Assembly (NCBI GenBank): GCA_965248695.1
Contig: CBDFKD010000002.1
Coordinates: forward strand, 5,013,201-5,077,200
Direction of reading: 5' to 3'
DNA length: 64,000 nt
Source: Acidobacteriota bacterium
GTDB lineage: Bacteria; Acidobacteriota; UBA890; WLXD01
Shown here in pieces: positions 1,338-38,679 of the stretch. Made by a program: the position numbers and the translations under genes. Numbering within the stretch: the stretch's first letter is position 1; every line of letters begins with the position of its first letter. The notes beneath the pieces are model-generated. The model did no database searches, had not been told where the DNA came from, and saw only the letters and a list, made by a program, of their open reading frames with translations.

Positions 1338-1523
1338 GGTGATGGAGCCAAACTACTGTTCGTGAGAGCGACCGGCAATACGTTGAGGTTCAGCTCGTCG
1401 CCGCAAGTCTCGCCAGCATGCGATTTGCACCGCCCCGGGACGGACCAGTGCGGTTGGCAGTCCGATCTGATACACACCGGCCAGGGGAGCACCCGAGCAC
1501 CTCCGAACGAGAGAGGCACAGCG

Positions 1524-5142: not shown

Positions 5143-5763
5143 CTAGCGCGCGATTTCTGCCAGGGCGGGGACCAGATCTCCGTAGCCGGTAAAGCGACGC
5201 TCATACTCGAGGCCCAGAAAGTCTGCCGCTTCGCGCGCCAGCTCGTCCAACTGCGGATCATCCGTCTGGGCGATGTACAGCGCCGTTGTGTAGTTGCCGA
5301 AATACATCTCCAACAATTCCGGATGCCGGTCGAGCCCCAGTGGGCGTTTCAAGAACGCATCGAAGTTACGTGCGAAGAAATCCGTGATGAAGAATGTCGT
5401 CAGGTAGGCACCGTCTGCTTCTTCGAAGGCTTGATTGCCGATGTAGAACGAAAAGCAATGCGGCCCTTCGATGCGTGACACGCCGTGCTTTTCGCATACC
5501 TTGTCCAGCTCGCCGCAGGTGCCGCAATCGGCGTAGCCGACGAATACATGCTCATAGCCGTCAGCACGCGCCTTGTGGATTGCGGCGTCCATGGCCGGGG
5601 CTATTTTTTCCGGATGAAAGTGGTAGTCGGCGGGCAGGCACTTCAGGTCGACGTAGTCGAAACCCAGCTGCTCGTTTACCGCCAGGACTTCACGGGCAAT
5701 CATGCCGCAGGCGATGACGCGGATCTTTCGCTTCTGTGCTGTGCCCGCAGGGTGCGTGATCAT
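5143..5763 (-). CDS. DUF1638-like protein (hypothetical)
   Basis: 206-aa ORF with a conserved Cys pattern (IACG...YADCGTCG). Weak recollection of DUF1638; function unknown. Confidence 0.35.
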   Translation of the reverse strand: MITHPAGTAQKRKIRVIACGMIAREVLAVNEQLGFDYVDLKCLPADYHFHPEKIAPAMDAAIHKARADGYEHVFVGYADCGTCGELDKVCEKHGVSRIEGPHCFSFYIGNQAFEEADGAYLTTFFITDFFARNFDAFLKRPLGLDRHPELLEMYFGNYTTALYIAQTDDPQLDELAREAADFLGLEYERRFTGYGDLVPALAEIAR

Positions 5764-5877
5764 GGCTCAAGCTTACAGGCAGCGATTGCTGCGGCACGAG
5801 CCGCGACAGCTCGTCGAACGCGGGTTTTCGCTGTTCCCTGGCGTTTCGCCCGAGGCACGCACCCGATCCCGGTCAGG

Positions 5878-7092
5878 CTACTTCACCGCCATGATTTGAA
5901 TTTGCACGACCCCACGACCAAGCGGCTGTTCGCCGACCACGGTCCAAGCCGGATAATCCCCCGTGAAGACCTCGCGGTACGCATCAACCATCGCAGGGTA
6001 ATCCCGCGTGTCACTCAGAAGAACCCATGCATCAACGACGTGCCGCCACTCGAAGCCGGCTGCTTTCAACCCACGACCCAGCCTGGCCAGCACCTCCCGC
6101 GTCTGCGCGTTCGCGTCGCCTCTGGTCGCGTCGGTCACGCCCTGGATTCCGCTGCTGAACAAGCGATTGCCAACAACGACCATGGGGCTCGCTGAGGGTG
6201 CGACGTCAGCATTCGGAATGCTGATAATCGTTTTCGGAGCCTCGACGGAGATAGTGGTGATCTCATCAAGGATGGTGCCCATGATGCCGGCCCTGAGGGT
6301 CGCCCGCGCCGGAGGGTCTTTAGGGAAGAAAGCGCGATAGGCCTCGTCCATCTCGTTCGCCAGCGCCTGATCCTGTACATAGACACGCGAGAAGACGACG
6401 TCGGCATGTGACATTCCAGCCGTCGACAACGCCTCCCCGATATCAGTCAGGGTTTGGGTCACATCCTTTCGCATGTCGCCACGTATGTACTGGCCCCCTC
6501 GCTTGTTGCTGGCGACGAGTCCCGAAATCCACAGCGTGTCGCCTGACTTGATTGCCCACGGGTAGGGCAGATTTGACTTCCCCCATTCCGCGGGTTGGAC
6601 GATTGTGCGCTCAGCTCCCTTGCGCAGTGCGATGATCGTGATCTCCACTAGGGCTGCGGATGGTGCCAATAGGTCGCCGGCCATGGTGGTCCGGACCGGG
6701 AGATCCAAATCGTCGCCTCGCGCGGTCTTGTGGGTGGTCTTGGGCCAGCCTGGATAGGCCTTGTACTCCTCGTTCATGGCCCTGAAGTCACCCTTGCTCC
6801 GCAGGTACACGTAACTCGAAACCGCCTGTTCAAGGCTGGTGTCTGCGTCGTGCAGGATCGCGGAGATGTTGTCGAGAGCCCGCCGAGTCTGGGTCTTGAT
6901 GTCGCCGAACCTACCGTCAGGTTCGCGTCCGAACTGTCCGGAGACGTACACGTAGTCGCCGGCGACCACTGCCGCACTTGCCGGCATATCGCGGTCCCCG
7001 CCGGTCATCTTGATGACCCGTTTGCCGCCCTGGCCCAGAGTCGCCACCTGAATCGCTCCGACTAGCAGAATGACGCCACCGATCGCGCGCAC
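5878..7092 (-). CDS. Secreted triple-RidA (YjgF/endoribonuclease L-PSP) domain fusion protein
   Basis: 404 aa with a signal peptide and three ~125-aa repeats. Each carries a RidA-like motif: YVYVSGQ, TLWISGL and RLFSSGI. Confidence 0.6.
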   Translation of the reverse strand: MRAIGGVILLVGAIQVATLGQGGKRVIKMTGGDRDMPASAAVVAGDYVYVSGQFGREPDGRFGDIKTQTRRALDNISAILHDADTSLEQAVSSYVYLRSKGDFRAMNEEYKAYPGWPKTTHKTARGDDLDLPVRTTMAGDLLAPSAALVEITIIALRKGAERTIVQPAEWGKSNLPYPWAIKSGDTLWISGLVASNKRGGQYIRGDMRKDVTQTLTDIGEALSTAGMSHADVVFSRVYVQDQALANEMDEAYRAFFPKDPPARATLRAGIMGTILDEITTISVEAPKTIISIPNADVAPSASPMVVVGNRLFSSGIQGVTDATRGDANAQTREVLARLGRGLKAAGFEWRHVVDAWVLLSDTRDYPAMVDAYREVFTGDYPAWTVVGEQPLGRGVVQIQIMAVK

Positions 7093-7100
7093 GAGCCGCT

Positions 7101-7943
7101 TCAGCTCGTCGGCTTGGTGAACTTCAACAGGTAGCGATCGGTGTCGTGGCGGCCATCATAGGTGCCCTCGTCGAAGCCCGAAGTGCTACGGTCGTCAGCC
7201 GGGTTTGCCAGCATGTCGGAGCGCCCCGAGAGCTCGAAGCCCCCGGCGGTGAACTCGTCGATTACGGTTTGCTCGTTGAGGCGATGCGTCTCCGAGTCCC
7301 ATCCGGGCCTGTTGCTGGCTGCCTCGACGATGCCCACCACTCCGCCTGGCTTCAGGGCTCGGAGCATCTCGGTCACCGCCTCGGGGCGAGAGGGGCCAGG
7401 GACGGTCGCGAGGTCGTGGTAGCTGCGCACCGCGACCATGACGTCGACGCTCCCCGATTTCATATCCGCAAGCTTGTCGAGTAGCTCGACGTTGCTCAGC
7501 CCATGGCCCTGGATACGCTGCTGCAAGCCCTCTCTCGTGGAGTAGTCGGTGTCCAGACCGAAGAAACCCAGGACACTCAGCACGTGCCCGTCCGCGCCCA
7601 TCAGGCGTGACATCAAGTGAGTGTTGTAGCCCTCGGCAGGCCACAGATCCGCAACCGTCATGCCTGGCTGCATGCCCAGCCACTCGTAGACATCGATTGC
7701 TTTGCGGCCAACATCCTCGGTGCGCTCGGCATCGGGGCGCGTCGGGTCATCGAGGACAGAGCGATCCAGCAGCGTCACGGCCGAATCTTGTGGCAAGGCC
7801 GAGGCAGTCTCGTCCGGGGCTAGTGGCTGGGTTTCCGGGCTACAGGCGATCATCGTTACCGCCACTCCCACGAGCAACGAGAGCAAGTGCGTATCTCCGA
7901 CGACGGCGTGATTGGTACGCTTGAACCGATTCGCCTGTCTCAC
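7101..7943 (-). CDS. Class I SAM-dependent methyltransferase, lipoprotein
   Basis: 280 aa. Lipobox-like VTMIACS. Methyltransferase-fold motifs (VADLWPAEGY..., VDVMVAV). Its 5' end is duplicated at 30.9-31.0 kb. Confidence 0.55.
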   Translation of the reverse strand: MRQANRFKRTNHAVVGDTHLLSLLVGVAVTMIACSPETQPLAPDETASALPQDSAVTLLDRSVLDDPTRPDAERTEDVGRKAIDVYEWLGMQPGMTVADLWPAEGYNTHLMSRLMGADGHVLSVLGFFGLDTDYSTREGLQQRIQGHGLSNVELLDKLADMKSGSVDVMVAVRSYHDLATVPGPSRPEAVTEMLRALKPGGVVGIVEAASNRPGWDSETHRLNEQTVIDEFTAGGFELSGRSDMLANPADDRSTSGFDEGTYDGRHDTDRYLLKFTKPTS

Positions 7944-8044
7944 CGTTGATCTCCTTTCACCGGGGCAAAAGACCTGTATCCCGTGGGCTAGGGGGCTGCC
8001 GATTCACTCGACAAGAGCGTCAACGAACTCACGACTCCCGGCTA

Positions 8045-8317
8045 GTGGCCTGTAACAGGGAATTCGATAGTGCCGTGGTGGCGAGATGGGGTCGAATGCA
8101 AGGCGCTCCGACGAGTCGATGTTGGTGCATCTTGGAGGAGGAGCAACGCCGCAGGCGGCCCGATCTCGCCGCCATCCTGCGGACAGATGGGCAGTTGCGG
8201 GCGATATCGGCGTTGCGACTCGTCGACGATGCCCGACGGCATCGCCATCCTCGCCGCGCCTCGATCTCGCCCGCAAATCCCATCTGCGGCACTATCGAAT
8301 TCCCTGTTACAGACCAC
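8045..8317. mobile_element. MITE-like non-autonomous element with 34-bp terminal inverted repeats and TA target duplication
   Basis: TIR GTGGCCTGTAACAGGGAATTCGATAGTGCCG at 8045-8075. Its reverse complement sits at 8285-8317 with 1 mismatch. TA at 8043-8044 and again at 8318-8319. The interior is also palindromic, so both strands encode RHYRIPCYRPL. No transposase. Confidence 0.5.
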
Positions 8318-9240
8318 TAGAAATCTCTCGCATGGACCAAACGGGTATCCATATCCGCTGGCGCGTCCAGGCCGAAGGCTCGCGCGACCGTTGCTGCCGT
8401 GACGGTAACGGCCAGCGAGCCGAGCTTACCGCGCGCGATTCCATCACCCCAGAGAATCCAAGGGACCCTGTTGTTCGAACTGCCCCTACGATCGTGAGAT
8501 CGGCCCTCGCCGCCGTGATCGGCGGTAACGATGACGATAGAGGGACCCGGTAGCGCCCCACTCTCTAGCACGGCAATCAGGCCGCCGAGCAACGCGTCCA
8601 CTCCGCGCAGCGCCAGCGTCTGTTTCTGATGCCCCCACCCGAACTCGTGTCCTGCTCGATCGACGTCCGGCAAGTGCACGAGCATCAGGTTCGGCTGTTC
8701 TTGTATCAGGTACTCGCGCGCCTCTCGGGCAACGATCGCGGCCGGGACATCCCGGACCTCCATTCGATCGATCGCCGGCGACAAGGCGATGTGCAGCAGC
8801 TTGGTCTTGCCGGCGAAGAATGCTGTCTTCAGCCCGGCCTCGTGGGCGACGTCGAAGACCGTTGCCGCCTCGACCAACCCCCGATCCGCCTCGTAGGCGT
8901 TCCACGTTACTCGGTGGATCGGAGGCTCGACGCCCGTCACGATCGAGGTGATCGCCGGCAGTGTAACGCTCGGCTGCACCGTTCGAGCGTCGAGCGTTGC
9001 AGCGCCCTCGCTGATCAGCCGGCTGAGCGTGGGCGCATGTTCCTTGGAGATCAGGTCGGACCGCAACCCATCCAGAATCACGATGATGACGTGACCGTCG
9101 GACCCGATCGGCGCCAGCTGGTAGGGACGCCCTGGCCGCTCGTTCACCGTGGAGCAGGCCACGAGCGTGGCGACGATCGGTGTCGCTGCGGCGAGGCTGA
9201 CGAGGAACCTGAATCGCCGCCGGGAAAAGGCAGGCGTCAT
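8317..9240 (-). CDS. Nucleotide pyrophosphatase/phosphodiesterase (alkaline-phosphatase superfamily) lipoprotein
   Basis: 307 aa. Signal and lipobox (LVACS). VIIVILDGLRSD and TADHGG motifs typical of type I phosphodiesterase/NPP. Confidence 0.65.
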   Translation of the reverse strand: MTPAFSRRRFRFLVSLAAATPIVATLVACSTVNERPGRPYQLAPIGSDGHVIIVILDGLRSDLISKEHAPTLSRLISEGAATLDARTVQPSVTLPAITSIVTGVEPPIHRVTWNAYEADRGLVEAATVFDVAHEAGLKTAFFAGKTKLLHIALSPAIDRMEVRDVPAAIVAREAREYLIQEQPNLMLVHLPDVDRAGHEFGWGHQKQTLALRGVDALLGGLIAVLESGALPGPSIVIVTADHGGEGRSHDRRGSSNNRVPWILWGDGIARGKLGSLAVTVTAATVARAFGLDAPADMDTRLVHARDF

Positions 9241-9396
9241 GTGCCTCTTCTGATAGACGGCTCGGGGTGGCCCAGTCGACTGCCGGGTTCCATTGCGTTT
9301 CCGAGAAGGGGAGCGAACATAGACATACGAAGCCTACCGCGCGATCGTGGGAGGCTCCAAGGGAGCGACAGAGGAGACCCGCATCGGGCGCGCTTG

Positions 9397-10467
9397 CTAG
9401 AAGATTACGGAGCCTTGGCCACGCTCGTCGATCATCTTCTGGATATGCGCTACGAGCAGCTCTCGTCGTTCCAGGAGCGCGCCCATCTGTTCCGAAACGA
9501 GGTAAGCGTCGATCGCCGCGCGGATCTGGTCGTCGGTCACCTGCTGTAGCAGCTCCCACATGCGCGGACTGCACCAGACGATCTCATCGCCGTAGCGCAG
9601 GTCCTTGTGCACCTGGAATGCGCGTGAGTGATCGATCATCCAAAGTGCCCATTCAGTGTCGATAAGGTAGTTGCCGCGGTTCCGGTCGTCGTTGAAGATC
9701 AAGCTGTCGAATATGCGCATCGCCTGGATCTGGCGCTGCCAGTCGGCCGTCACGGGTGGAGGTCCCGCCGCTCCTTGGCCGGCCTCGCCGAGCGTGCGCT
9801 CTATCCAGAGCTGCACGCTTCCATCGATGCCGTTGACCCTGCGGCACACGGTGGGCGGTACGTTGTCGAGCTCGAACAAGCGCGCCATCTGATAGGCGGC
9901 GCACTGGCCCTTGTAGCTATCGTAGTAGCGGCTGAAGCTGCGGCCGTTCATGCGGCGGGCCCGCGAGACTCTGTCGATCTCGTGAAACGCGCCGTGCGCT
10001 CGAACACCGTCACGCTCGAGTACCAGGCGCTTGATCCCAGTGACGCCGATACCGACGTTCTCCGATGACACGACAAGGGCCGTACGCAGGAACTCCGTCG
10101 CCTCGTCGTAGGTCCGAAAGGGTAGCGGCGTACCATTCGGCCCCGGCCACGGGCGGGCAATCTCTGCATCGTCCTGAGATCGATGCACCCAGGCGAGCGT
10201 GCTCGTAGTGAGCGCCGGCGATAGCACCAGAGCCACGGCGGTGGCCGCGAGCAGAACACTCCGGGCCGCCTTCACGCGGCGCGCGGTCGGATGGGTTCTC
10301 TCTTGAGCGCTGATGCCGGGCTCCACGGCGCTATCACAGAGGGGTGGGCGAAGCGCCTGAAGCCTATCGCCAGAGCCGGCGAGATCCAACGGAGACGGCA
10401 GGGTAGACACGACCGGCCTTCGCCGGGGAATACCTGCCCTACTTGTGCTTCTCGCGTCGCTCCCCAT
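9397..10467 (-). CDS. Secreted protein with a PI3/PI4-kinase (type II PI4K-like) catalytic-loop motif
   Basis: Motif IFDSLIFNDDRNRGNYLID resembles the PI4KII loop DYIIRNTDRGNDNWLI. The likely true start is the GTG near 10275, giving the signal-like VKAARSVLLAATAVALVL. The N-terminal extension is uncertain. Confidence 0.4.
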   Translation of the reverse strand: MGSDARSTSRAGIPRRRPVVSTLPSPLDLAGSGDRLQALRPPLCDSAVEPGISAQERTHPTARRVKAARSVLLAATAVALVLSPALTTSTLAWVHRSQDDAEIARPWPGPNGTPLPFRTYDEATEFLRTALVVSSENVGIGVTGIKRLVLERDGVRAHGAFHEIDRVSRARRMNGRSFSRYYDSYKGQCAAYQMARLFELDNVPPTVCRRVNGIDGSVQLWIERTLGEAGQGAAGPPPVTADWQRQIQAMRIFDSLIFNDDRNRGNYLIDTEWALWMIDHSRAFQVHKDLRYGDEIVWCSPRMWELLQQVTDDQIRAAIDAYLVSEQMGALLERRELLVAHIQKMIDERGQGSVIF

Positions 10468-10698
10468 AGCGCGCGCCGCTCAACGAGGCGGAGAGGGTGT
10501 GGTTGCCTTCGTGACACGCATACTCATAGAGGGCCTCGTCGAATCGCGTGAACGGAACCCCGCCTCCCCGCGGGGCCACCTTGGTCCAGTGCCCCTGGAG
10601 ATCCGGGTGGCCGTGCACCGTCCTCGGCAGTTGCCACTCTCCGCGGTCGGGAGCAGCGTTTTGCGCCGCCACGGTCGATCACAGCGTCGCGCCGGAAA

Positions 10699-20425: not shown

Positions 20426-21031
20426 TCAGAGCAGTTCGACGACGATCTCGGTCGGTCCACCTGGCGCATTGATCGCCCAGCCTGGACCGTCGAGGTCGTA
20501 GGGGCAAGATGAGACGGCGCAGATGAGGTCCATGCGCGCCTTGAGCACTACGTAGCCGCCGGGCTCGACCACGGGCGCGGCCGGCGTATGGAACAGGAAC
20601 CCGTCTTCCACGGTCGTGTTGGTAAAGAAATTCACCGCGAAAGGGGTCACGGCGATCTCGTGGCCCATTTCACGCATTGCCATCTCGAGGTTCTCGGCGC
20701 AGCTCCGGTGATGACCCTCGACGCCGAATTGTTTGTAACGAATCGCGTCGCATGGGGCGATGATCAGATCGTGGATGCCCTCGGCTCCGTCTTCGACAAA
20801 ATCGAGCATCGGCCGCCGGAAGCGACTGAGGAAGGTGTCGCCGACTCGTGGGTGCAACGCGCGTGTCGGCATCCAGGTGTGGGCGGGAGACAGCCACTCG
20901 CCGACATCGTCCGCGCGGAAGGCAAAGAGGTCGGCGGACTGTTGGCCCTTGGGAGTGATGATGCGGAACAGCTGCCCCTCGGCGACCCGAAACGCACGGC
21001 CGTCGCCGGCCGGAACAACCAATGTCTCCAT
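20426..21031 (-). CDS. DUF1989 (urea-carboxylase-associated protein-like) family protein
   Basis: 201 aa with a typical DUF1989 length and sequence pattern. Its start codon directly abuts the E-element stop at 21032. Confidence 0.55.
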   Translation of the reverse strand: METLVVPAGDGRAFRVAEGQLFRIITPKGQQSADLFAFRADDVGEWLSPAHTWMPTRALHPRVGDTFLSRFRRPMLDFVEDGAEGIHDLIIAPCDAIRYKQFGVEGHHRSCAENLEMAMREMGHEIAVTPFAVNFFTNTTVEDGFLFHTPAAPVVEPGGYVVLKARMDLICAVSSCPYDLDGPGWAINAPGGPTEIVVELL

Positions 21032-21085
21032 CTACGGGTCCGTCGGCACGAGTCGCTGCAGCTCCTCGAACCAGTTGGTGATGGC
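21032..21085 (-). repeat. E-element copy 1: conserved ~50-nt element that would encode AITNWFEELQRLVPTDP, in frame after the oxidase TGA
   Basis: Shares ttcgaggagctgcagcgactcgtgccgacggacccgtag with the copies at 30.73 kb and 34.6 kb. Confidence 0.5.
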
Positions 21086-22282
21086 TCAGAAGGTGTCATT
21101 CTTGAGTCTGAACGTATCGGCCAAATCCGGGCTGTGATCGTCACCCACGACACGATGGGCCACGTAGTCGCCCATCATGATGCCGTGCTTGTAGCCGTGG
21201 CCTGAGCCGCCGCCGACGATCCAGACGTTGTCCATCTCCGGGTGGCGGTCGACGATGAAGTGGTCGTCGACGCTGTTTTCCAACTGGCACACCCGCGACT
21301 CGAGCACCGGCTGATCCGCCAGAGCCGGGAAAGCATGCACGACGAATTGGCGCGCCTGCGCGATCTCCTCGGCGGTCACGATCCGCTCGTCGGTGTCCGG
21401 ATCGAACGGGATGCTGTCCAAATAGGGTCGCACCTTCCAGCCGCGCCCCTCGATGCCCGGGAAGCCGTAAGCGCCCTGCATCTCCCACGTCGGACAGTTG
21501 GGGTAGATGAACCGGTTGTCGTCCATCGGTACGCCGTACCAGAAGGTGCTGCCGCGAGGAGTCTGGAGCTTGTTCTTCATCACCGAGGGAAACACTTTCG
21601 GCAGCCACGGGCCGCACGCGAAGACGAACGTATCGGCCGATACCGGCTCGCCGGTCGACAGCTCGATCTCCAGTAGCTTGCCTCCGGCGTGCCGACCGGG
21701 CTTGGCCCTGGCGGTGACCACCGTGCCGCCGGCGCGCTCGAAAGCTCCCGCGACGACGAAACAGGCTCGCCGCGCCATGAGGACACCGGTGCTGGGTACG
21801 TGGAACCCGAATTCGAACTCCTGGTGGTTGAACTGAGGATAGCGCCGAGCCAGCTCGTCGTGAGGCACGACCTCGTTGTCGATCCCGTGTCGATCGAGCA
21901 CCTCCTTGCTAGCCCGCAGATGCTCGGACCATTGGCGCGCCAGCGTCAGCTGACCCGTACGGTAGAAGAGTGGCCGTCCACCCCACTCCCTCTGGCGCGC
22001 GTCCCACCGGTCGAACGCTTGCACGACCCATCGGGTGTAGATCTCGCGCTCGCCGTATTGGGTACGGATCTGCCGACTCTCTCCGCCGGAGGCCGCCCGT
22101 GCGTTGCCGGCGCCGTAGGCGTCGATGAGCGTGACCCGGTGTCCCATTTCTCGCAGATAAAGGGCTGTCCAGCCGCCGAACGCTCCCGCCCCGATGACCG
22201 CTACGTCCGCCGTCGAGACGGCCGCCGGTCCGGACGTCTGAACCGCGTTGGTCGCTGCCCGCGGTTGCTCGTTGCCGCCCAA
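21086..22282 (-). CDS. FAD-dependent oxidoreductase (DAO / sarcosine-oxidase-beta-like)
   Basis: VAVIGAGAFGGWTALYL dinucleotide-binding motif. The start is uncertain: a TTG at 22282 sits just after the upstream stop, and the track ORF extends to 22489, overlapping the NHL gene. Confidence 0.6.
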   Translation of the reverse strand: MGGNEQPRAATNAVQTSGPAAVSTADVAVIGAGAFGGWTALYLREMGHRVTLIDAYGAGNARAASGGESRQIRTQYGEREIYTRWVVQAFDRWDARQREWGGRPLFYRTGQLTLARQWSEHLRASKEVLDRHGIDNEVVPHDELARRYPQFNHQEFEFGFHVPSTGVLMARRACFVVAGAFERAGGTVVTARAKPGRHAGGKLLEIELSTGEPVSADTFVFACGPWLPKVFPSVMKNKLQTPRGSTFWYGVPMDDNRFIYPNCPTWEMQGAYGFPGIEGRGWKVRPYLDSIPFDPDTDERIVTAEEIAQARQFVVHAFPALADQPVLESRVCQLENSVDDHFIVDRHPEMDNVWIVGGGSGHGYKHGIMMGDYVAHRVVGDDHSPDLADTFRLKNDTF

Positions 22283-22284
22283 CG

Positions 22285-23385
22285 TCAGCGCGCCTGCACG
22301 TTCAGCGGCCGGAAAGGTACGTATCTCACCAGGCGCTGCCGGTTGATTTCCCCCGCGTAGATGTTGCCGGCGAAGTCCACGCCAAGGAACTCGAGCCCCG
22401 GCCCGATGTCTGCGTCGTGTTGGGGAACGAAGTGCAGGACCCAAGCCTGCTCCTCTTTCAGGTCGCCGATCCGGATCCCCTTCTCCCACCCGAAGTTGCT
22501 CCGCCAGGTGTCCGGAGGGCCGGTTCTTGGCGTGCCCGAAAGGCCGTCGGCGGCGTAGAGGATATCGTTGCGGTCAATGAAGAGCCCGCTCGGCTTGCCG
22601 TATTGGGTCCAGATGTAGAGGGGCTTGCCGACTGGGTCGAAGACCTGGATCCGGCTGTTGCCGCGGTCGGCGACGTAGACGCGACCGCGGGAGTCGAGCT
22701 TGACGTCGTGGGGGTCGCTGAACCGACCCGGCTCCCTGCTCTCCGAACCGACGCCACCGCCCACTTCGAGAAGGAAGGTGCCGTCACGCGAGAACTTGAC
22801 GAGCCGGTTGTTTCCGCCCCGGTGCCCATCAGTGACCCAGATGTCCCCGTTTCTGGCGATCGCGACGCCGGACGGCCCGTTGAAATGGTGCGGACCGTTT
22901 CCCCAGACCCCGGCTTCGCCGAGCCGCATCACAACCCCTCCTCGCTGGTCGAGCTTCACGACCTGATGACCCAGCCCGAGGCTCTCACCAAGCTTCGCCC
23001 GGGCATCCCCGTGTGAGCCGCCCTCGGTCACCCAGAGAAAGCCCTCGTGATCCAGGTAGAAGCCGTGAGGGAAGCCGAAGATCCCTGCGCCGAAGCTCTC
23101 CACCAGGTTGCCGTCGAGGTCGAACTTGAGGATCGGATCCAAGTCGCTCCCGGCGCACTGATTCCCGCCACACCGGTCGAGCATCCACAGGTGCTGGCCG
23201 TCGGGGTCGGGGAAGGCTCCGCTCATGATCCCCAGCGTTCTTCCTTCGGGGAGTTTCTCCCAATCGAGCGTGACGCGGTACGGATTGATCGTGGAAGTTT
23301 GGGCGTACAGCCACCCGCCCAGCGTCACTGCCAACGCGCTCGAGACGGCCGCAACCGCCGCGCCTATCCGACGGGCATGCCGCAT
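22285..23385 (-). CDS. NHL-repeat (peptidylglycine amidating-lyase-like beta-propeller) secreted protein
   Basis: Signal peptide. Repeated VADRGNSRIQVFD-type NHL motifs. Confidence 0.7.
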   Translation of the reverse strand: MRHARRIGAAVAAVSSALAVTLGGWLYAQTSTINPYRVTLDWEKLPEGRTLGIMSGAFPDPDGQHLWMLDRCGGNQCAGSDLDPILKFDLDGNLVESFGAGIFGFPHGFYLDHEGFLWVTEGGSHGDARAKLGESLGLGHQVVKLDQRGGVVMRLGEAGVWGNGPHHFNGPSGVAIARNGDIWVTDGHRGGNNRLVKFSRDGTFLLEVGGGVGSESREPGRFSDPHDVKLDSRGRVYVADRGNSRIQVFDPVGKPLYIWTQYGKPSGLFIDRNDILYAADGLSGTPRTGPPDTWRSNFGWEKGIRIGDLKEEQAWVLHFVPQHDADIGPGLEFLGVDFAGNIYAGEINRQRLVRYVPFRPLNVQAR

Positions 23386-23490
23386 GCGATCGGGCCTGTT
23401 TTGGTGCCGGGTTCCATGGCCTTATCAAGGAGGCATAGGTGACCGGCTGAGCCTAGCGATGGAGCAAGCGAGGGTCCAGGGTTCGGTTGC

Positions 23491-24948: not shown

Positions 24949-26564
24949 TTGCGCGCCGCCGATGTCTTCCAACTCCTCCGCGCCGAGATGAACCTCCGCG
25001 ACCGCGACACTAATCCGGTACAGCCGACGGGCTTGGATTACTCACGAAAGCCAATAGAGGACTACGTCGACCTGATCGATGCGGCGGTCGTCTATGAGGT
25101 GGCGACGAGGACCCCGCTCGAGCTCGCCGGTAACCTGTCGGCGCGACTCGGCAACCGGATCCTGCTGAAGCGCGAGGACCTACAGCCGATCTTCTCGTTC
25201 AAGCTCCGCGGTGCATACAACAAGATCGCATCGCTCTCGCAGCAGGCGCTGGGCGCTGGGGTCATATGCAGCTCGGCCGGTAACCACGCGCAGGGCGTGG
25301 CACTCGCCGCGCGGCGGAAAGGCACGCGGGCGGTAATCGTCATGCCGGTCACGACACCGAGCATCAAGATCGATGCCGTCAGGGGGCTGGGAGGCGAGGT
25401 GATTTTGCATGGCGACACCTACGACGACGCCTACGGCAGGGCACGGGAGCTCGAGAAGATCGACGGTCTGACGTTCTCCATCCATTCGACGATCCCGCGG
25501 TTATCGCCGGCCAGGGCACCATCGGCAAGGAGATCCTCGAGCAGGCGGACGAAGCCGTGAGCGCCGTCTTTGTTCCCATCGGCGGTGGTGGGCTCATCTC
25601 GGGAATCGCAGCCTATATCAAGGCGAAACGGCCAGAAATCCGCATGATCGGCGTCGAGCCGGAGGATTCGGCGGCGATGGGAGACTCGGTCGCCGCCGGT
25701 GAGCGCGTCACCCTGGAGCATGTCGGCAGCTTTGCCGACGGCGTCGCCGTCAAGCAGGTGGGCGAGGAGACCTTTCGACTCTGCCGGGAGCTGGTCGACG
25801 ATTTCGTCACCGTCGATACGGATCAGATCTGTGCCGCCATTCGCGACATATTCGAGGACACGCGCTCGGTCGTAGAGCCTGCCGGAGCGCTGGCGACCGC
25901 CGGCGCGAAGCAATATCTCGCCGAACACGCAGCGCGGGACGAGACGGTCGTGGTGATCAACTGCGGCGCCAACGTCAACTTCGACCGGCTAGGCCACATC
26001 GCCGAGCGCGCCGCCGTCGGTGACCAGCAGGAGATGTTGCTGGCCGTCGAGATCCCGGAGAAGCGCGGCAGCTTCAAAGCATTCTCCGAAGCCGTCGGCC
26101 GGCGCGGCGTTACCGAATTCAACTACCGCTACAGCGACCCGAAGATCGCGCACATCTTCGTCGGCATCGAACTGCGTCGTGGACCGCGGGAACGAGCGGA
26201 GCTGATCGAGACGCTGCGGGGGCTCGGGTATCCGCTCGTCGACCTGAGCGATGACGAGTTGGCGAAGCTCCACATCAGGCACATGGTCGGCGGCAGGGCA
26301 GCGAACCTCGAGAACGAACGGCTGTTCCGCTTCGAGTTTCCGGAACGTCCCGGTGCCCTACTTGACTTCCTGACCGCGATCGGCGCGAACTGGAACGTTA
26401 GCCTCTTCCACTACGGGAACCACGGCTCCGACCACGGTCGGGTCCTCGCCGGCATCCAGGTGCCCAAAGAGGACTCGGACAAACTCGAGGCACACTTCAC
26501 CGAGCTGGGCTATCCGTACTGGGAGGAGAGCGACAATCCGGCCTACGCGATGTTCCTGGCTTGA
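24949..26564 (+). CDS. ilvA: Threonine dehydratase (biosynthetic IlvA) interrupted by a -1 frameshift near 25483
   Basis: N-terminal ORF carries the PLP-Lys [10 protein letters not shown] and SAGNHAQG. The second frame continues [22 protein letters not shown]...VPIGGGGL, then the ACT-like C-terminal domains. One base is missing in atccatcc. Confidence 0.7.
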
Positions 26565-28721: not shown

Positions 28722-28772
28722 CGCATCCCCCGAGTCCCTGCTGTCTATCGCCCGGTAACGGGCGAGCGCCGC

Positions 28773-28804
28773 AAGCGTATCGTCAGCGCCGCCGAGTTCC
28801 AACG
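28773..28804. repeat. R-core repeat copy a (aagcgtatcgtcagcgccgccgagttccaacg)
   Basis: 30/32 identical to the copies at 30569, 33115 and 40345. Lies 50-80 bp upstream of the minus-strand gene 28305..28721. Confidence 0.6.
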
Positions 28805-28968
28805 AGTCATTGCCAACTCACAAGCGCTCACGTATTTTGCCGCAGTCGCTCGGCTAGTGCCCGGCTGCTGCCTCGATCTGGCAGCGCGATGGCGTGGCGG
28901 CAGATCGTGGGCTGGTACCTACACGAGGACATGGAGCGGCTTCGACCTGTTGGCGCCATGGCCAGCGC

Positions 28969-30560: not shown

Positions 30561-30795
30561 GCGCCCAGAAGCGTATCGTCAGCGCCGGCGAGATCCAACG
30601 CCAGGTGTAGAGAGGCTATCGGGCGGCAGTTGAATTGAGGTAGTAGGCCCAATCACCCCGAGTTGGAACCGGATCTAGGAAGAGCTCCGAGGGCTGGATC
30701 GGCTACTTGCCTGATTCGGAGGGCTGAGCGCGTTACGGGGCCGTTGGCACGAGCCGCTTCACCTCCTCGAACCGGGTGGTGACGAGCGTCACGCA
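30561..30795. repeat. Composite repeat copy b: R-core, tRNA-3'-like segment, spacer and E-element copy 2
   Basis: R-core at 30569-30600. tagtaggcccaatcaccccgagttggaacc at 30641-30670. The 110-nt stretch 30680-30795 is about 75% identical to 34536-34640 and includes the FEEVKRLVPTAP-encoding core. Confidence 0.55.
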
Positions 30796-30899
30796 ATGGC
30801 TACTGGCCCGCATCTGCGCGCGGCTTTCGCACTCCTTCAGTTCCTAATACTCGAAGGACTTGCCGAGGAGTCGCGGGCCTGACTTCTACTGTCCAGGCA

Positions 30900-31010
30900 T
30901 AGACGGGCCGAGCCACACGAACCGGTACTCCCACGAGCAGCGAGAGCAGCTACGTATCTCCGACGACGGTGTGCTGGGTCCGCTTGAACCGATTCGCTTG
31001 TCTTACCGTA
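30900..31010 (-). pseudogene. Duplicated 5' fragment of the 7101..7943 methyltransferase gene, with an in-frame stop
   Basis: ~90 nt near-identical to 7860-7945. Would encode RQANRFKRTQHTVVGDT*, versus MRQANRFKRTNHAVVGDTHLL in the intact gene. It supplies the last codons of the oxidase paralogue. Confidence 0.6.
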
Positions 31011-33003: not shown

Positions 33004-33114
33004 AGCCTAGCCGCTCCAGGTTCTCAAACGCGGGAAGCGTGCGAAACGTCGACTCGTTACCAGGCTCGACCGAAGTGCAAATCGCATCCAGACTCTGACG
33101 TCGGCGAGCAAGGG

Positions 33115-33219
33115 AAGCGTATCGTCAGAGCTTGCGAGATCCAACGGAGGGAGTAGGAAGAGGCTGCGGGCAACGGCGAAACGGAGGTGGTAGCCCCAAC
33201 GGCCAGGATGTTGAACCAC
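33115..33219. repeat. Repeat copy c: R-core plus a diverged copy of the tRNA-Glu 3' end and trailer
   Basis: aagcgtatcgtcagagcttgcgagatccaacg followed by ...caacggcgaaacggaggtggtagccccaacggccaggatgttgaacc. Compare the tRNA region ...caacggcgaaatagagggagtagccccaacgggatttgaacc. Confidence 0.6.
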
Positions 33220-34045: not shown

Positions 34046-34441
34046 TCAGCTTTCGGCATCGTCCGGGAGAGCGTATCCACCCGATTCGTCGTTAACTTCG
34101 TCGCCAACCAGCGGCGGGTTGAAAATAGCAATGGCGCGCACTTCGGTATCCAGGTTGTAGCGGTGACGCTCATGTTTGTCGAAAGCATAGAAGACTCCCG
34201 GCTCCAGTCTATAAACGTCCCCGGTCTCGATGATCTCGACAGTGCCGGTTCCCTCGAGAACGTAAACGGCCTCGATGTGGTTCTTGTGCTCGACCTCGAG
34301 GTCGATGCCTGCCGAGCCGACGGCCTCGGTTACGGTGAAGCCCAAGTTGTCGGACGCGACCGCCAGGCGGGCGCTCACGAAACCATCCGCTTCGACGAAA
34401 TTCGGCGTCCCCTTCAATTGTGCAAATGTACGAAGAATCAT
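34046..34441 (-). CDS. ectC: L-ectoine synthase
   Basis: 131 aa. MILRTFAQLKGT N-terminus, HKNHIEAVYVLEGTG cupin core and FNPPLVGDE. No ectA or ectB nearby. Confidence 0.75.
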   Translation of the reverse strand: MILRTFAQLKGTPNFVEADGFVSARLAVASDNLGFTVTEAVGSAGIDLEVEHKNHIEAVYVLEGTGTVEIIETGDVYRLEPGVFYAFDKHERHRYNLDTEVRAIAIFNPPLVGDEVNDESGGYALPDDAES

Positions 34442-34535
34442 CCTGAGGTTCCCTTTGCTGGTTTGATATTCGTAGCTGGCACTATCGCTGGCGAAGTCTT
34501 CCGGCAGCACGTTGATCGAGACATCACGATCGAGA

Positions 34536-34640
34536 GTGGAACTCCGGGGGCTGCATCGGCTGCTTGCATGATTCGGTGAGGCCGGCTGAGCGCGCTACTT
34601 GTCTGTCGGCGCGAGCCGGTTCAGCTCGTCGAAGAAGTTA
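34536..34640. repeat. E-element copy 3 plus extension, abutting the stop codon of the NHL gene
   Basis: Would encode DWFSRTNFFDELNRLAPTDK* in the +1 frame relative to the NHL stop TAA. The extension is homologous to 30680-30730. Confidence 0.5.
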
Positions 34641-35765
34641 GTTCGTGAGAACCAATCCTCGGCCGACGAGCTTTATGGGATCGGCTCCGGGCTTCGGAAC
34701 GAACTTGCTCAACCATCCGCCGTCCCAGCTGGCGACATAGACGTTGCCGTCCTGGTCCACGTCCATCTGGTGTGGACGCCCGAGGCCACCAGGAAAGCCG
34801 CCCCGCGTCCCGCCGAACGCACCCCAGTGGTACTGGAGGACCCCGTCCAGGTTGTACCTGAGGATCCGGTTCACTGCCGCAGAAATCACCCAGACCGCGT
34901 CATTCTCGTCGATGAAGATTCCGACGGGATCGGTGACGTCGGGCCACTCCTCGATGAACTCGCCGTCTTCCGTAAAGACTTGGATGCGGTTATTGGTCCG
35001 GTCGCCGACGTAGATGCGGTGATCGCGGTCCACGGCAACGCCGTGGATGAGGTCGAACTGTCCGGGGCCGCTCCCGACCGAGCCGAACTCCGACACGAGC
35101 TCGCCGGCCGCGTTGTACCTGGCGATACGACCGTTCTGGTAACCGTCCCCGAGCAGAAAGTCGCCGTCCGGGAGGAAGGTCATCACCGAGGCCTGGCCGA
35201 AGTCGAGCGGTCCCGGGTTCTTGTTCGCCCGTGCCTTCTCCCCGCTCTGGCGCGGGTTGGGGTCGAGGAGCCGCATCACGATCTGTTTGCCGTCGTTGGT
35301 GAACTTGATGACCTGCTCGTGGATGTCCCTGGTTCCTCCGCCGCGCTCGACGAGCCAGATGTGGCGCTCCGGGTCGTAGGGGCTGATGTAGACCTGGTGG
35401 GGAGTGTTGAGCATGGTGTCCCACTGGGTCCAACGCTCGACGATGTCCCCGTTCCCATCGACGACCACCATGTAGTTGGAGCTGTTCGGCCGCTCTTCGC
35501 CTTCGGCGTTCCGGTCGCCCCACACTGCAACGATAATCCGGTTCGGATTGTCAGCCGCCACACCAGAGACCTGACCCCAGGTCCACTCCTCGTCGTGGTC
35601 TGGCGCCGGCTTCCACCAGCCTGCCACCGGATCGTATCCTCCGGTACGGTCGTCCCCGCCCTTGATGACCGCCTCCGGTGCGGCCTGGTCCTCACCAGCG
35701 CAGGCTGGGAGTAGCGCCAGCCCAACGGCGAGGAAGAGGGCCACGTCCATGCGCTTTAGTTTCAT
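34638..35765 (-). CDS. NHL-repeat lipoprotein (paralogue of 22285..23385)
   Basis: MKLKRMDVALFLAVGLALLPACAGE signal and lipobox. VGDRTNNRIQVF NHL repeats. Confidence 0.65.
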   Translation of the reverse strand: MKLKRMDVALFLAVGLALLPACAGEDQAAPEAVIKGGDDRTGGYDPVAGWWKPAPDHDEEWTWGQVSGVAADNPNRIIVAVWGDRNAEGEERPNSSNYMVVVDGNGDIVERWTQWDTMLNTPHQVYISPYDPERHIWLVERGGGTRDIHEQVIKFTNDGKQIVMRLLDPNPRQSGEKARANKNPGPLDFGQASVMTFLPDGDFLLGDGYQNGRIARYNAAGELVSEFGSVGSGPGQFDLIHGVAVDRDHRIYVGDRTNNRIQVFTEDGEFIEEWPDVTDPVGIFIDENDAVWVISAAVNRILRYNLDGVLQYHWGAFGGTRGGFPGGLGRPHQMDVDQDGNVYVASWDGGWLSKFVPKPGADPIKLVGRGLVLTN

Positions 35766-35809: not shown

Positions 35810-36790
35810 TGACCCGCTTCCGTGGACACCTTATGGCTAACGCCAAAGGAGTCTGCGATGCGAAGAACACGACCGCCTTATCCGCCGGAGTTTCGCCGGC
35901 AGATCGTCGAGCTAGCGCGGGCAGGACGCAGCGTGCAGGAGCTCGCCGAGGAGTTCGAGCCCTCGTACTGGACGATCCGTACATGGATCAAGCAGGCGGA
36001 TCGAGATGACGGGCTTAGCGCGGCTGGCCTGAGTAGCCAGGACAAGGAAGAACTACGGCGGCTACGCCGGGAAAACCGCCAGTTGAAGACGGAGCGGGAG
36101 ATCCTGGCAAAAGCCGCGGCCTGGTTCGCTCGGGAGACCGGCGCAGTACCCAAGAAGTCTTCGGGTTCGTGAGAGCTCACCAGGCCTGCTATCCGATCGC
36201 CACGATGTGCCGAGTGCTGGAGGTCTCCACCAGCGGCTACTACGCGTGGCGACAACGCCCTAGCAGTATGCGAGCACGACAGGATGCACAGCTGCGTGAG
36301 CAGATCGAGACGATCCATCGACTTAGCCGTGCGACCTATGGCGTGCCTCGGGTACACGCGGAACTGGCCGCCGACGGCGTTCGGGTGGGGCGCAAACGCG
36401 TGGCACGGCTGATGAGCCAGGCGGGGCTGGAGGGTGTCAGCCGCCGCCGTCGGCTGCGCACGACGCGCCGCGGTACTGACGCGCAGCCGGTGCCCGATCT
36501 GGTGAAACGTGACTTCGCGGTCGGTGCACCCGATCGCCTGTGGGTTGCCGACATCACGTACGTCTCTACGTGGTCGGGGTTCTTGTACCTGGCGGTGGTG
36601 ATGGATGCCTTCAGCCGGCGGGTGGTGGGCTGGTCGATGGCCAACCACCTGCGTACCGAACTGGTGCTTGAGGCGCTCAACATGGCGATCTGGCAACGCC
36701 GACCTGAGAGCGTGATCCACCACTCTGATCAGGGCACGCAATACACCTCGATCGCCTTCGGCCACCGCTGCAAGCAGCTCGGTGTACGTC
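35810..36790 (+). mobile_element. IS3-family insertion sequence, 3'-truncated (IS#1)
   Basis: OrfA (HTH, leucine zipper) and OrfB (DDE integrase core, 209 aa, lacking its C-terminus) in a -1 overlap. The candidate IRL TGACCCGCTTCC begins near 35810. The right end is replaced by IS#2. Confidence 0.55.
35858..36172 (+). CDS. IS3-family transposase OrfA
   Basis: MRRTRPPYPPEFRRQIVELARAG...ENRQLKTEREILAKAAAWFA. Confidence 0.8.
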   Translation: MRRTRPPYPPEFRRQIVELARAGRSVQELAEEFEPSYWTIRTWIKQADRDDGLSAAGLSSQDKEELRRLRRENRQLKTEREILAKAAAWFARETGAVPKKSSGS

Positions 36791-36798
36791 TGACCTGA
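36169..36798 (+). CDS. IS3-family transposase OrfB (truncated)
   Basis: DDE domain motifs LWVADITYV and HSDQGTQYTS. It ends early where IS#2 is inserted. Confidence 0.75.
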   Translation: MRAHQACYPIATMCRVLEVSTSGYYAWRQRPSSMRARQDAQLREQIETIHRLSRATYGVPRVHAELAADGVRVGRKRVARLMSQAGLEGVSRRRRLRTTRRGTDAQPVPDLVKRDFAVGAPDRLWVADITYVSTWSGFLYLAVVMDAFSRRVVGWSMANHLRTELVLEALNMAIWQRRPESVIHHSDQGTQYTSIAFGHRCKQLGVRLT

Positions 36799-38400: not shown

Positions 38401-38486
38401 GCGCCCGAGATCCATCGCCAGCGGAGGCGAGATCCAGCCGGTGGGGCAGGGGATGCACCGGAGGACAACGGCGAAATAGAGGGAGT
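38401..38486. repeat. Repeat copy f: partial R-core plus trailer immediately 3' of tRNA-Glu
   Basis: gcgcccgagatcca / ggcgagatccagccgg, then the trailer caacggcgaaatagagggag that is shared with copy c. Confidence 0.5.
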
Positions 38487-38560
38487 AGCCCCAACGGGAT
38501 TTGAACCCGTGCCGCCGGCTTGAAAGGCCGGTGTCCTAACCTGGCTAGACGATGGGGCCA
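38487..38560 (-). tRNA. tRNA-Glu (anticodon UUC)
   Basis: Reverse complement GGCCCCATCGTCTAGCCAGGTTAGGACACCGGCCTTTCAAGCCGGCGGCACGGGTTCAAATCCCGTTGGGGCTA. Cloverleaf with anticodon loop CTTTCAA. CCA not encoded. Confidence 0.8.
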
Positions 38561-38606
38561 CCCTGGAAAACCGCTGTGGCGAGGCCGGGTCACTAGGTAG
38601 AAGTGT

Positions 38607-38679
38607 GGGCCGTCAGGGGATCGAACCCTGGACACCCGGCTTAAAAGGCCGGTGCTCTGCCAACTGAGCTAACGGCCCG
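38607..38679 (-). tRNA. tRNA-Lys (anticodon UUU)
   Basis: Reverse complement GGGCCGTTAGCTCAGTTGGCAGAGCACCGGCCTTTTAAGCCGGGTGTCCAGGGTTCGATCCCCTGACGGCCCA. Anticodon loop CTTTTAA. Confidence 0.85.

Follow-up and report, generated by a model that had tools for sequence, protein, structure and literature searches.

Dispersed gene tails in an Acidobacteriota genome as probable 3'-terminal relics of kinase/beta-propeller genes at rearrangement junctions

The 64,000-nt stretch of the Acidobacteriota contig CBDFKD010000002.1 considered here (the window) contains a dispersed element of about 50 nt that can be read as a short peptide and that lies beside or between unrelated genes, among them those of a DAO-family oxidoreductase, an NHL lipoprotein and an FAD-oxidoreductase (the identities of the neighbouring genes are taken from Pfam). 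A first-pass annotation of this DNA had described three copies with near-identical cores abutting stop codons, and had suggested a 3' regulatory RNA, a recombination site or a small mobile repeat as candidates for their nature. The exact 39-mer given there has a single occurrence, on the minus strand at 21032-21070. When a relaxed 20-mer core is allowed up to three mismatches, it is found at five sites, all on the minus strand, where 0.05 would be expected by chance, which confirms that the repeat is real. Two degenerate copies, as well as the orientation common to all of them, had been overlooked. The five sites, labelled c1 to c5, are the following:

c1, 21032-21085, minus strand: tail relic of 17 codons and TAG, translated as AITNWFEELQRLVPTDP and stop
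c2, 30733-30816, minus strand: tail relic of about 27 codons, translated as QMRASSHCVTLVTTRFEEVKRLVPTAP and stop, with the end reading SSHCVTLVTTRFEEVKRLVPTAP and stop
c3, 34595-34642, minus strand: tail relic, translated as TNFFDELNRLAPTDK and stop
c4, 5792-5818, minus strand: degenerate tail relic AFDELSRLVPQQ with its stop codon lost, intergenic, in the gap between a RidA-like gene and a DUF1638 gene
c5, about 7085-7120, minus strand: degenerate tail relic reading TCACCAAG-CC-GACGAGCTGAAGCGGCTCGTGCG, with an indel

Calling the cores near-identical overstates their likeness, since over 45 nt the identity is 37/45 between c1 and c2, 35/45 between c1 and c3 and 31/45 between c2 and c3. The 5' limits of the copies also differ, at 17, about 27 and 16 codons for c1, c2 and c3, respectively. 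Past the stop codon, c2 and c3 have further homology in common, as had been noticed, over about 45 bases (within a 92-nt alignment of 79% identity). With regard to the surrounding genes, c1 stands in frame directly after the stop codon TGA of the DAO-family oxidoreductase gene (21086-21088), and its own TAG is immediately followed by the DUF1989 start codon ATG (21029-21031), while c3 lies in the +1 frame and overlaps the TAA of the NHL lipoprotein gene (34638-34640). These placements agree with what had been reported. The statement that the element abuts stop codons holds for c1 and c3 but not for c2, which sits inside a 494-nt gap that runs from the FAD-oxidoreductase gene to a GNAT gene, about 190 nt beyond the stop of the former (31003). 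From c2 and c3, the next start codon is 150-225 nt away. Read out of frame, c5 constitutes the last codons and the TGA of a methyltransferase gene (7101-7943), and the GTG start of the next gene (5878-7092) falls within it. With respect to the gene upstream, c1 is in frame 0, c3 in frame +1 and c5 in frame -1.

As judged from its sequence, the element is the coding sequence for the extreme C-terminus (..VVLNWFEELKRLVPTx and stop) of a very large family of proteins that combine a Ser/Thr kinase with a PD40/TolB beta-propeller, an origin of the peptide that had not been recognised before. With a 29-nt degenerate pattern, a scan of one genome for each species gave 89 loci, which belong mostly to Vicinamibacterales and other Acidobacteriota and in a few cases to Gemmatimonadota, Rokubacteria, Chloroflexota and others. 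Nearly all of them encode xVVLNWFEELKRLVPTx, with the stop 11-15 codons past the Trp, at the close of a long open reading frame (ORF) of up to about 1000 amino acids (aa), and the proteins extracted from these loci are Ser/Thr kinases with a C-terminal PD40/TolB-like beta-propeller, or the propeller alone. A protein search with one family member yielded at least 4449 relatives, annotated at source as serine/threonine-protein kinase, Tol biopolymer transport component or PD40 protein. In an alignment of 54 family sequences, the tail Trp is invariant and the Phe and Leu that follow are at least 90% conserved. An AlphaFold model (mean predicted local distance difference test score, pLDDT, of 92) presents the propeller, a low-confidence linker, a last strand VTLV (residues 302-305) and a short helix WFEELKRL (residues 308-315). 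Family members, whose propeller is periplasmic, end in a disordered linker, a beta-strand xVVLN, the helix WFEELKRLVPT, 1-4 residues and the stop, and the final 45 bases or so are the best-conserved DNA of the genes. No Pfam or NCBIfam model spans the tail itself, and a literature search for the tail motif or for the family returned nothing relevant. In many genomes the family genes are arranged in tandem, and the stop codon of the tail adjoins or shares bases with the ATG of the family gene that follows (TGATG, TGAATG). A tail, a spacer and a kinase start in succession are therefore what naturally forms the joint between two genes of a tandem array.

Compared with tails from other genomes, c1 matches the family consensus at 43/45 nt, c2 at 39/45 and c3 at 37/45. 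The copies are nearer to these tails than to one another, and have therefore diverged independently from the gene sequence instead of being copied from each other. In tblastn searches, c2 also matches the C-termini of the family proteins from loci L083 and L039. All of c1, c2 and c3 have the family motif xVVLNWFEELKRLVPTx followed by the stop at the same position, and in c2 and c3 the sequence past the stop is again that of related family genes, as specified for c2 in the following line:

30685-30732, minus strand: post-stop sequence of c2 common to c3, made up of the spacer and of the opening bases of the family (kinase) gene that comes next

The window copies differ from family genes in that they have no propeller or kinase body. 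Searches with 12 family proteins (tblastn) detected no PD40 or kinase homology upstream of any copy, where there is DNA of other kinds, including the complete DAO and NHL genes, and no intact tail-bearing family gene was found in the window. Conserved residues have been lost as well. The invariant Trp together with the conserved Phe and Leu is kept in c1 alone; in c2 the invariant Asn-Trp has become Thr-Arg, and c3 carries Phe for Trp, Asn for Lys and Ala for Val. The copies are thus fragments of family genes and not members of the family.

The genes next to the copies do not own the tail. When the DAO and NHL proteins with the tail appended were searched against 5.8 billion proteins, the 120 listed of 7987 matches to DAO covered 93-98% of the query and the 120 listed of 1812 matches to NHL covered at most 96%, and every one of these listed alignments stopped before the tail. 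NHL proteins at 68-96% identity natively end in ..GRGLVLTN, ..LVLE or ..LVLAN, and the native stop codon of the homologues is TAG. A frameshift separating an NHL protein that ends in LVLTN from the tail was considered and rejected, as distant NHL homologues end likewise. The view already taken in the first-pass annotation, that the element is not a C-terminal extension of the oxidase or the NHL protein, is supported by the lack of a tail-bearing homologue among the listed matches and by the different frames of the copies.

The DNA of relatives places the copies at breaks in gene order. In five DAO relatives (86-92% identity), the TGA is followed by an unrelated gene of about 420 aa, which is absent from the window, and homology to the window ends 2-5 nt past the TGA. 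On the other side of c1, the DUF1989 loci retrieved from metagenomes (39 of 39, with identities of up to 91%) possess a Shine-Dalgarno leader of their own and lack a tail upstream. For the NHL gene there are three different downstream contexts, each beginning directly past the stop codon, of which the window represents one and close relatives the two others. Relatives carry other DNA right past the same stop codons, and the copies therefore lie at lineage-specific junctions. In the NHL relative L099, a kinase 5' relic (MEPGTRLGEYEILDRLGAGG) is found downstream of the NHL gene where the window has the tail, and the simplest reading of the two sequences would be that one ancestral family gene in this position was deleted differently in the lineages of the window and of L099. 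The join at c3 falls in an AACTA microhomology, through which we infer that the two ends were joined, and by which the NHL stop codon has changed from TAG to TAA. The DAO gene is altered at its 5' end (22285-22489, minus strand), where the native start and the twin-arginine translocation (TAT) signal have been lost: relatives read MSRHDRRTFLKLTGAGAL and the window reads ..GEIRTFPAAERAGAL, with no ATG nearby. The stop codon of an upstream NHL gene (NHL-1) is located inside this altered region, and from its sequence the oxidase may be N-terminally damaged.

Besides tails, the window contains the opposite ends of family genes and the 5' end of another gene:

34464-34594, minus strand: kinase 5'-end relic past c3, with a 25-nt spacer, then MQAADAAPGV.. 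and then ..LDRDVSINVLPEDFASD
23391-23417, minus strand: kinase-start relic CCATGGAACCCGGCACCAAAACAGGCCCG (MEPGTKTGP..), matching the start of the intact kinase of L081 at 27/31 nt
9243-9296, minus strand: kinase-start relic MEPGSRLGHPEPSIRRGT and stop (MEPGSRLGHPE..)
30890-31009, minus strand: 5' relic of a methyltransferase paralogue, 88% identical to 7864-7946, with a mutated start and an in-frame TAG

The kinase relic at 34.5 kb, which has 72% identity to a kinase relic of L103 (E = 2e-7), has become fused to the leader, 45 nt long and native, of an EctC-like gene (34046-34441), and c2 retains the beginning of the same arrangement of tail, spacer and kinase start that is seen at c3. At 23.4 kb, the kinase start forms a 17-codon upstream ORF (MEPGTKTGPIACGMPVG and stop) that overlaps the start of NHL-1 (22285-23385), and at 9.3 kb the TGA of the relic shares bases, as ATGA, with the start codon ATG of a phosphodiesterase gene (8317-9240). 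From their position these two mini-ORFs may act as coupling leaders. Two blocks, one of NHL-1 and DAO and the other of phosphodiesterase and methyltransferase, have a start relic on one side and a tail relic on the other.

Debris of other kinds surrounds these pieces. The methyltransferase relic is placed between the FAD-oxidoreductase stop and c2. A gene of 334 aa, which stands directly upstream of DAO in relatives, has left an internally deleted relic at 10442-10630 (minus strand), about 11 kb from DAO in the window, with residues 31-47 and 293-334 kept at 64-76% identity. The threonine dehydratase gene ilvA (24949-26564, plus strand) is divided into two overlapping ORFs, one with the N-terminal half of the PALP domain and the other with its C-terminal half and the regulatory domain, and is either a frameshift pseudogene or the product of a sequencing indel. 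Upstream of the NHL gene there is a truncated fragment of an IS3-family transposase (HTH_21 and rve domains; 36169-36798, plus strand), and genes for tRNA-Glu and tRNA-Lys are found at 38485-38678. The region is a mosaic of rearranged and decaying pieces beside two tRNA genes.

Similar remains occur in other genomes. In 150 kb of relatives' loci, which were not selected for the tail and some of which overlap, there are no intact family genes and roughly 6-8 relics, almost all of them just upstream of a co-oriented gene. Taking the start relics by themselves, about 7/9 are placed within 100 nt upstream of such a gene. Among the 89 tail-selected loci, most cases of a short frame are full-length genes frameshifted in long-read metagenome-assembled genomes (MAGs), and true orphan tails also occur (L076, L081, L086, L024 and L061). 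Junction relics are found in L086 and L066, the tail in the latter (about 2780-2960) being fused in frame to the kinase start of the next gene, and L090 (about 5700-5870) holds an internally deleted mini-gene in which the kinase N-terminus is joined directly to the tail (MTLAAGTHFGTYEIVSGAGGMGEVYRA..NVVLNWFEELKRLVPTK and stop). Going by these sequences, L090 and L066 represent the same kind of decay as in the window.

The reading favoured here, to which a probability of roughly 0.8 is given, is that the copies are decayed 3'-terminal fragments, that is, pseudogene relics, of kinase/beta-propeller genes at deletion or rearrangement junctions. It is carried by the origin of the copies in the family, the missing gene body, the decay of invariant residues and the position at lineage-specific synteny breaks. 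For the order of events, we infer that family genes, being numerous and individually dispensable, would have absorbed the end points of deletions and rearrangements, by which the gene bodies would have been lost. Only their extreme ends would have stayed behind where the DNA was joined, the tails immediately downstream from unrelated genes (c1, c3 and c5) and the kinase-start relics immediately upstream from unrelated genes (23.4, 9.3 and 34.5 kb). The ends may have persisted as carriers of promoter and start signals, or of stop-start coupling signals, for the gene that follows, and possible traces of such coupling are hinted at by the meeting of TAG and ATG at c1, the ATGA formed at 9240 and the upstream ORF that runs across the NHL-1 start. 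As a peptide or an RNA, the relics are most likely inactive. The feature is therefore real and its nature ordinary, a known kind of gene relic and a further example of pseudogene debris.

Several observations weigh against the interpretation as relics. The borders of c1 are very precise, with 2-5 nt to the DAO stop on one side, 0 nt to the ATG of DUF1989 on the other and the DAO frame kept, a precision that two random breaks would be unlikely to produce without selection or later trimming. Relics outnumber intact family genes, with no intact gene in about 210 kb examined from the lineage, an excess not obviously expected if a family of moderate size had simply decayed, in a census that rests on the window and the relatives' loci. 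All relics are co-oriented with their neighbours and two blocks are bracketed by start and tail relics, which could be a sign of some ordered process and not of random decay. Finally, no relative was found with the intact ancestral gene at any of the c1-c3 sites.

In three MAGs, the DNA coding for the kinase/PD40 tail is itself the insertion site of an IS110-family element, located at AA/CT/GG (slashes delimit the CT core):

L052, 4486-6110, minus strand: IS110-family element
L072, 5403-6800, minus strand: IS110-family element
L084, about 1450-2600, plus strand: IS110-family element

The transposase of this insertion sequence (IS) is a DEDD protein of 440 aa, matching Pfam DEDD_Tnp_IS110 and Transposase_20. 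The insertion point reads AA/CT/GGTTCGAGGAG, and in all three loci the right junction is ..GATTTTCGACC/CT/GGTTCGAGGAG, where the right end of the IS, with the DEDD transposase adjacent, is joined at the CT core to GGTTCGAGG and is followed by the displaced native orphan tail, WFEELKRLVPTN and stop. On the left of the element there is a complete family gene ending in NW-LEELKRLVPIP, NW-HEELKRLVPVK or NW-FTELQQRVPTR before the stop, an ending that, from its sequence, is apparently a surrogate tail and stop codon borne by the IS. The conserved 5' non-coding end of the element, for which no Rfam model gave a match, holds CGAACCAGT, the reverse complement of the target ACTGGTTCG, and this is a candidate bridge-RNA guide. 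IS110 elements are RNA-guided and target repeated sequences via a CT core (PMC11208160), a mode of targeting that the tail insertions would fit. As with the REP sequences and integron attC sites targeted by IS110/IS1111 elements (PMC11208160), the insertion target in L052, L072 and L084 is multi-copy and conserved, with a CT core. It differs from them in that it is protein-coding instead of extragenic and that the IS seemingly brings a replacement tail; the window, moreover, has no such IS and its copies are not IS junctions. If confirmed, this would be a natural example of bridge-RNA target choice, with an IS110 element aimed at a protein-coding motif and seemingly carrying a surrogate C-terminus. 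Another sequence, AGTCGGCAAGGRTATTTCTATCGGC, is common to L023 and L084, two unrelated MAGs, 40-90 nt past the tail, and may represent one end of another type of IS with the tail as its target. The tail of L023 no longer has its stop codon, and a distant IS110-like transposase (27% identity) is encoded further on in that locus, about 5 kb away from the tail.

The precision of c1, the excess of relics and the bracketing of blocks leave a little room for an ordered process that sets gene blocks between family ends. Within that room, the ends of family genes (kinase start and tail) could be portable homology arms, or punctuation, of translationally coupled arrays into which unrelated blocks are swapped by recombination in the manner of cassettes, the ends that are kept being functional as expression leaders, linkers and coupling upstream ORFs. 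This would account for the two co-oriented blocks with a start relic upstream and a tail relic downstream, for upstream-ORF stops placed on downstream starts (ATGA at 9240, TAG/ATG at 21031), for the common overlap of the tail stop with the next ATG in other genomes and for the closeness of most start relics to a co-oriented gene. It is nevertheless unlikely, given that direct stop-start contact is found in c1 only, with 150-225 nt between c2 or c3 and the next start, and that c1 has no start codon of its own and stands behind an in-frame TGA. Invariant residues and frame are decaying, so that no peptide is being maintained, pieces of other, unrelated genes are scattered through this region, and plain deletion keeping the operon promoter accounts equally for the 5' relics. 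A wider proposal, itself doubtful, is that the family ends (kinase start ATGGAACCCGGCACC.., tail ..AACTGGTTCGAGGAGCTGAAGCG..) would be recurrent break-and-join points of genome rearrangement in these Acidobacteriota, serving as homology or microhomology arms present in many copies and, in some genomes, as an IS110 bridge-RNA target with a replacement tail, and that unrelated blocks would be inserted between them and expressed through the retained signals. It is very unlikely that the window copies are themselves footprints or targets of an IS110-family bridge recombinase, whose insertion, excision and IS-mediated deletions would have made the orphan tails. Such an origin would be in line with the exact position of the element in the family gene tail of L052, L072 and L084, with the orphan tail displaced at its right end, with the complementarity of CGAACCAGT and ACTGGTTCG, with RNA-guided targeting of repeats and with the target sequence being intact in c1. 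The window, however, contains no IS110 transposase and no IS110 end sequence, in c1-c3 the family sequence extends for 10 nt or more to the left of CTGG, so that they do not start at the IS junction, and the junction partners are unrelated genes instead of IS ends. With no IS110 in the window and no copy starting at the CT core, this process therefore did not make c1-c3 directly. The recombination idea of the first-pass annotation is not supported for the window copies and finds a counterpart only in the tails of three other genomes.

Readings that assign the copies a role at the level of RNA or translation fare worse than the interpretation as gene relics. A functional 3' cis-regulatory RNA or DNA element placed on several genes (a terminator, a stabiliser or a protein-binding site), which had been the first candidate, is suggested by the dispersal of the repeat near gene ends and by c3, which folds somewhat better than shuffled sequences (z = -2.3). 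Folding reveals no significant structure: for six copies and relatives the z-scores are -0.4, -0.2, -2.3, +0.8, +0.7 and -0.4, the five others being no better than shuffles. Across 84 loci, the duplex between tail and post-stop sequence averages -17.2 kcal/mol against -16.8 kcal/mol for same-locus controls (p = 0.69), and in the absence of such pairing the apparent hairpin of c3 does not generalise. At gathering thresholds Rfam recognises the two tRNAs only, and nothing near c1 even at E <= 10; there is no promoter-like or terminator-like site at any copy. Conservation follows the codons and the sequence terminates at the stop codon, and the copies are missing from orthologous sites in relatives. 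A cis-regulatory element is thus highly improbable, and largely refuted already. Even less credible is programmed recoding, in which read-through of the TGA after DAO and a +1 frameshift after NHL would add the tail to a fraction of the proteins. The 17-codon open frame of c1 past the TGA, in frame with DAO, and the existence of the tail as a real protein module elsewhere could be cited for it. Against it stand the lack of a tail in the listed DAO and NHL homologues, the lack of a selenocysteine insertion sequence (SECIS) or other recoding structure, the loss of the invariant Trp in c3 and the clipped N-terminus of DAO itself, without its TAT signal. The inconsistent frames of the copies (0, +1 and -1) also argue against it.

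Among the more specific candidates tried, an intrinsic terminator or other element of the 3' untranslated region was rejected, with no terminator-like site and no pairing above control, and so was SECIS-dependent or other stop-codon read-through, with no Rfam match at E <= 10, a fold z of -0.4 and no extended DAO homologue listed. Selenocysteine was likewise dismissed, there being no SECIS and only tRNA-Glu and tRNA-Lys in the window. An integron attC site is contradicted by the absence of a significant fold and by CACCAAC/GTTCGAG, which misfits the RYYYAAC/GTTRRRY cores. No tyrosine recombinase or integrase appears among the window ORFs scanned (the last Pfam batch, about 36.9-63.8 kb, was not covered), and neither an integrase nor an intact tail-bearing gene that would indicate an integron or integrative island is present in that same set. 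A repeat of the type of repetitive extragenic palindromes (REP) or miniature inverted-repeat transposable elements (MITE) was rejected because the 5' limits vary, there is no palindrome and the copies are nearer to the gene consensus than to each other. The suggestion of a recombination site or small mobile repeat had the same fate, as the copies have no common ends.

From the perspective of known systems, relics of expanded paralogous gene families, left as fragments by deletion, are found in Rickettsia and Mycobacterium leprae. As in other bacterial pseudogene remnants, the window copies are short non-functional coding pieces, identifiable solely by the best-conserved portion of the parent gene, that are located in intergenic regions or at rearrangement junctions and accumulate disabling substitutions. 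They differ in that they comprise the extreme 3' (and matching 5') ends of one family only, at high density, and in being co-oriented with their neighbours and often touching their stop or start codons. The silent pilS cassettes of Neisseria, whose long variable regions serve gene conversion, are also promoter-less, 5'-truncated family copies that retain a conserved 3' end, but the window relics span 8-30 codons and hold no variable information. Rickettsia palindromic elements, mobile peptide-coding palindromes inserted in frame in genes, resemble the copies as short dispersed repeats readable as a peptide beside or inside genes, whereas the window copies have neither a palindrome nor common ends and derive from a genuine protein C-terminus.

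For annotation, a false lead is removed, in that the element is neither a new 3' RNA nor a recoded extension of the oxidase or the NHL protein, and gene callers and motif hunters should expect many orphan tails and kinase-start mini-ORFs in Acidobacteriota genomes. In evolutionary terms, a massively expanded sensor-kinase/propeller family would once have been interspersed among metabolic genes and then largely purged in this lineage, where its remains mark synteny break points.

Two further features of the window deserve mention. A gene for an IS256/Mutator-family transposase (42241-43446, plus strand) lies between a response-regulator gene and a GGDEF/EAL gene. A separate repeat of about 33-43 nt (CGTTGGATCTCGCCGGCKCTGACGATACGCTTC, minus strand) occurs in four copies, at 10359-10394, 28772-28814, 30568-30610 and 33114-33156, all within about 30-110 nt of predicted minus-strand starts; three are upstream of the start and the 10.4-kb copy is just inside the ORF. 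The genes concerned are a 356-aa ORF, a 165-aa ORF, the GNAT gene and the FAD oxidoreductase gene, and the repeat may be a regulatory site or another relic.

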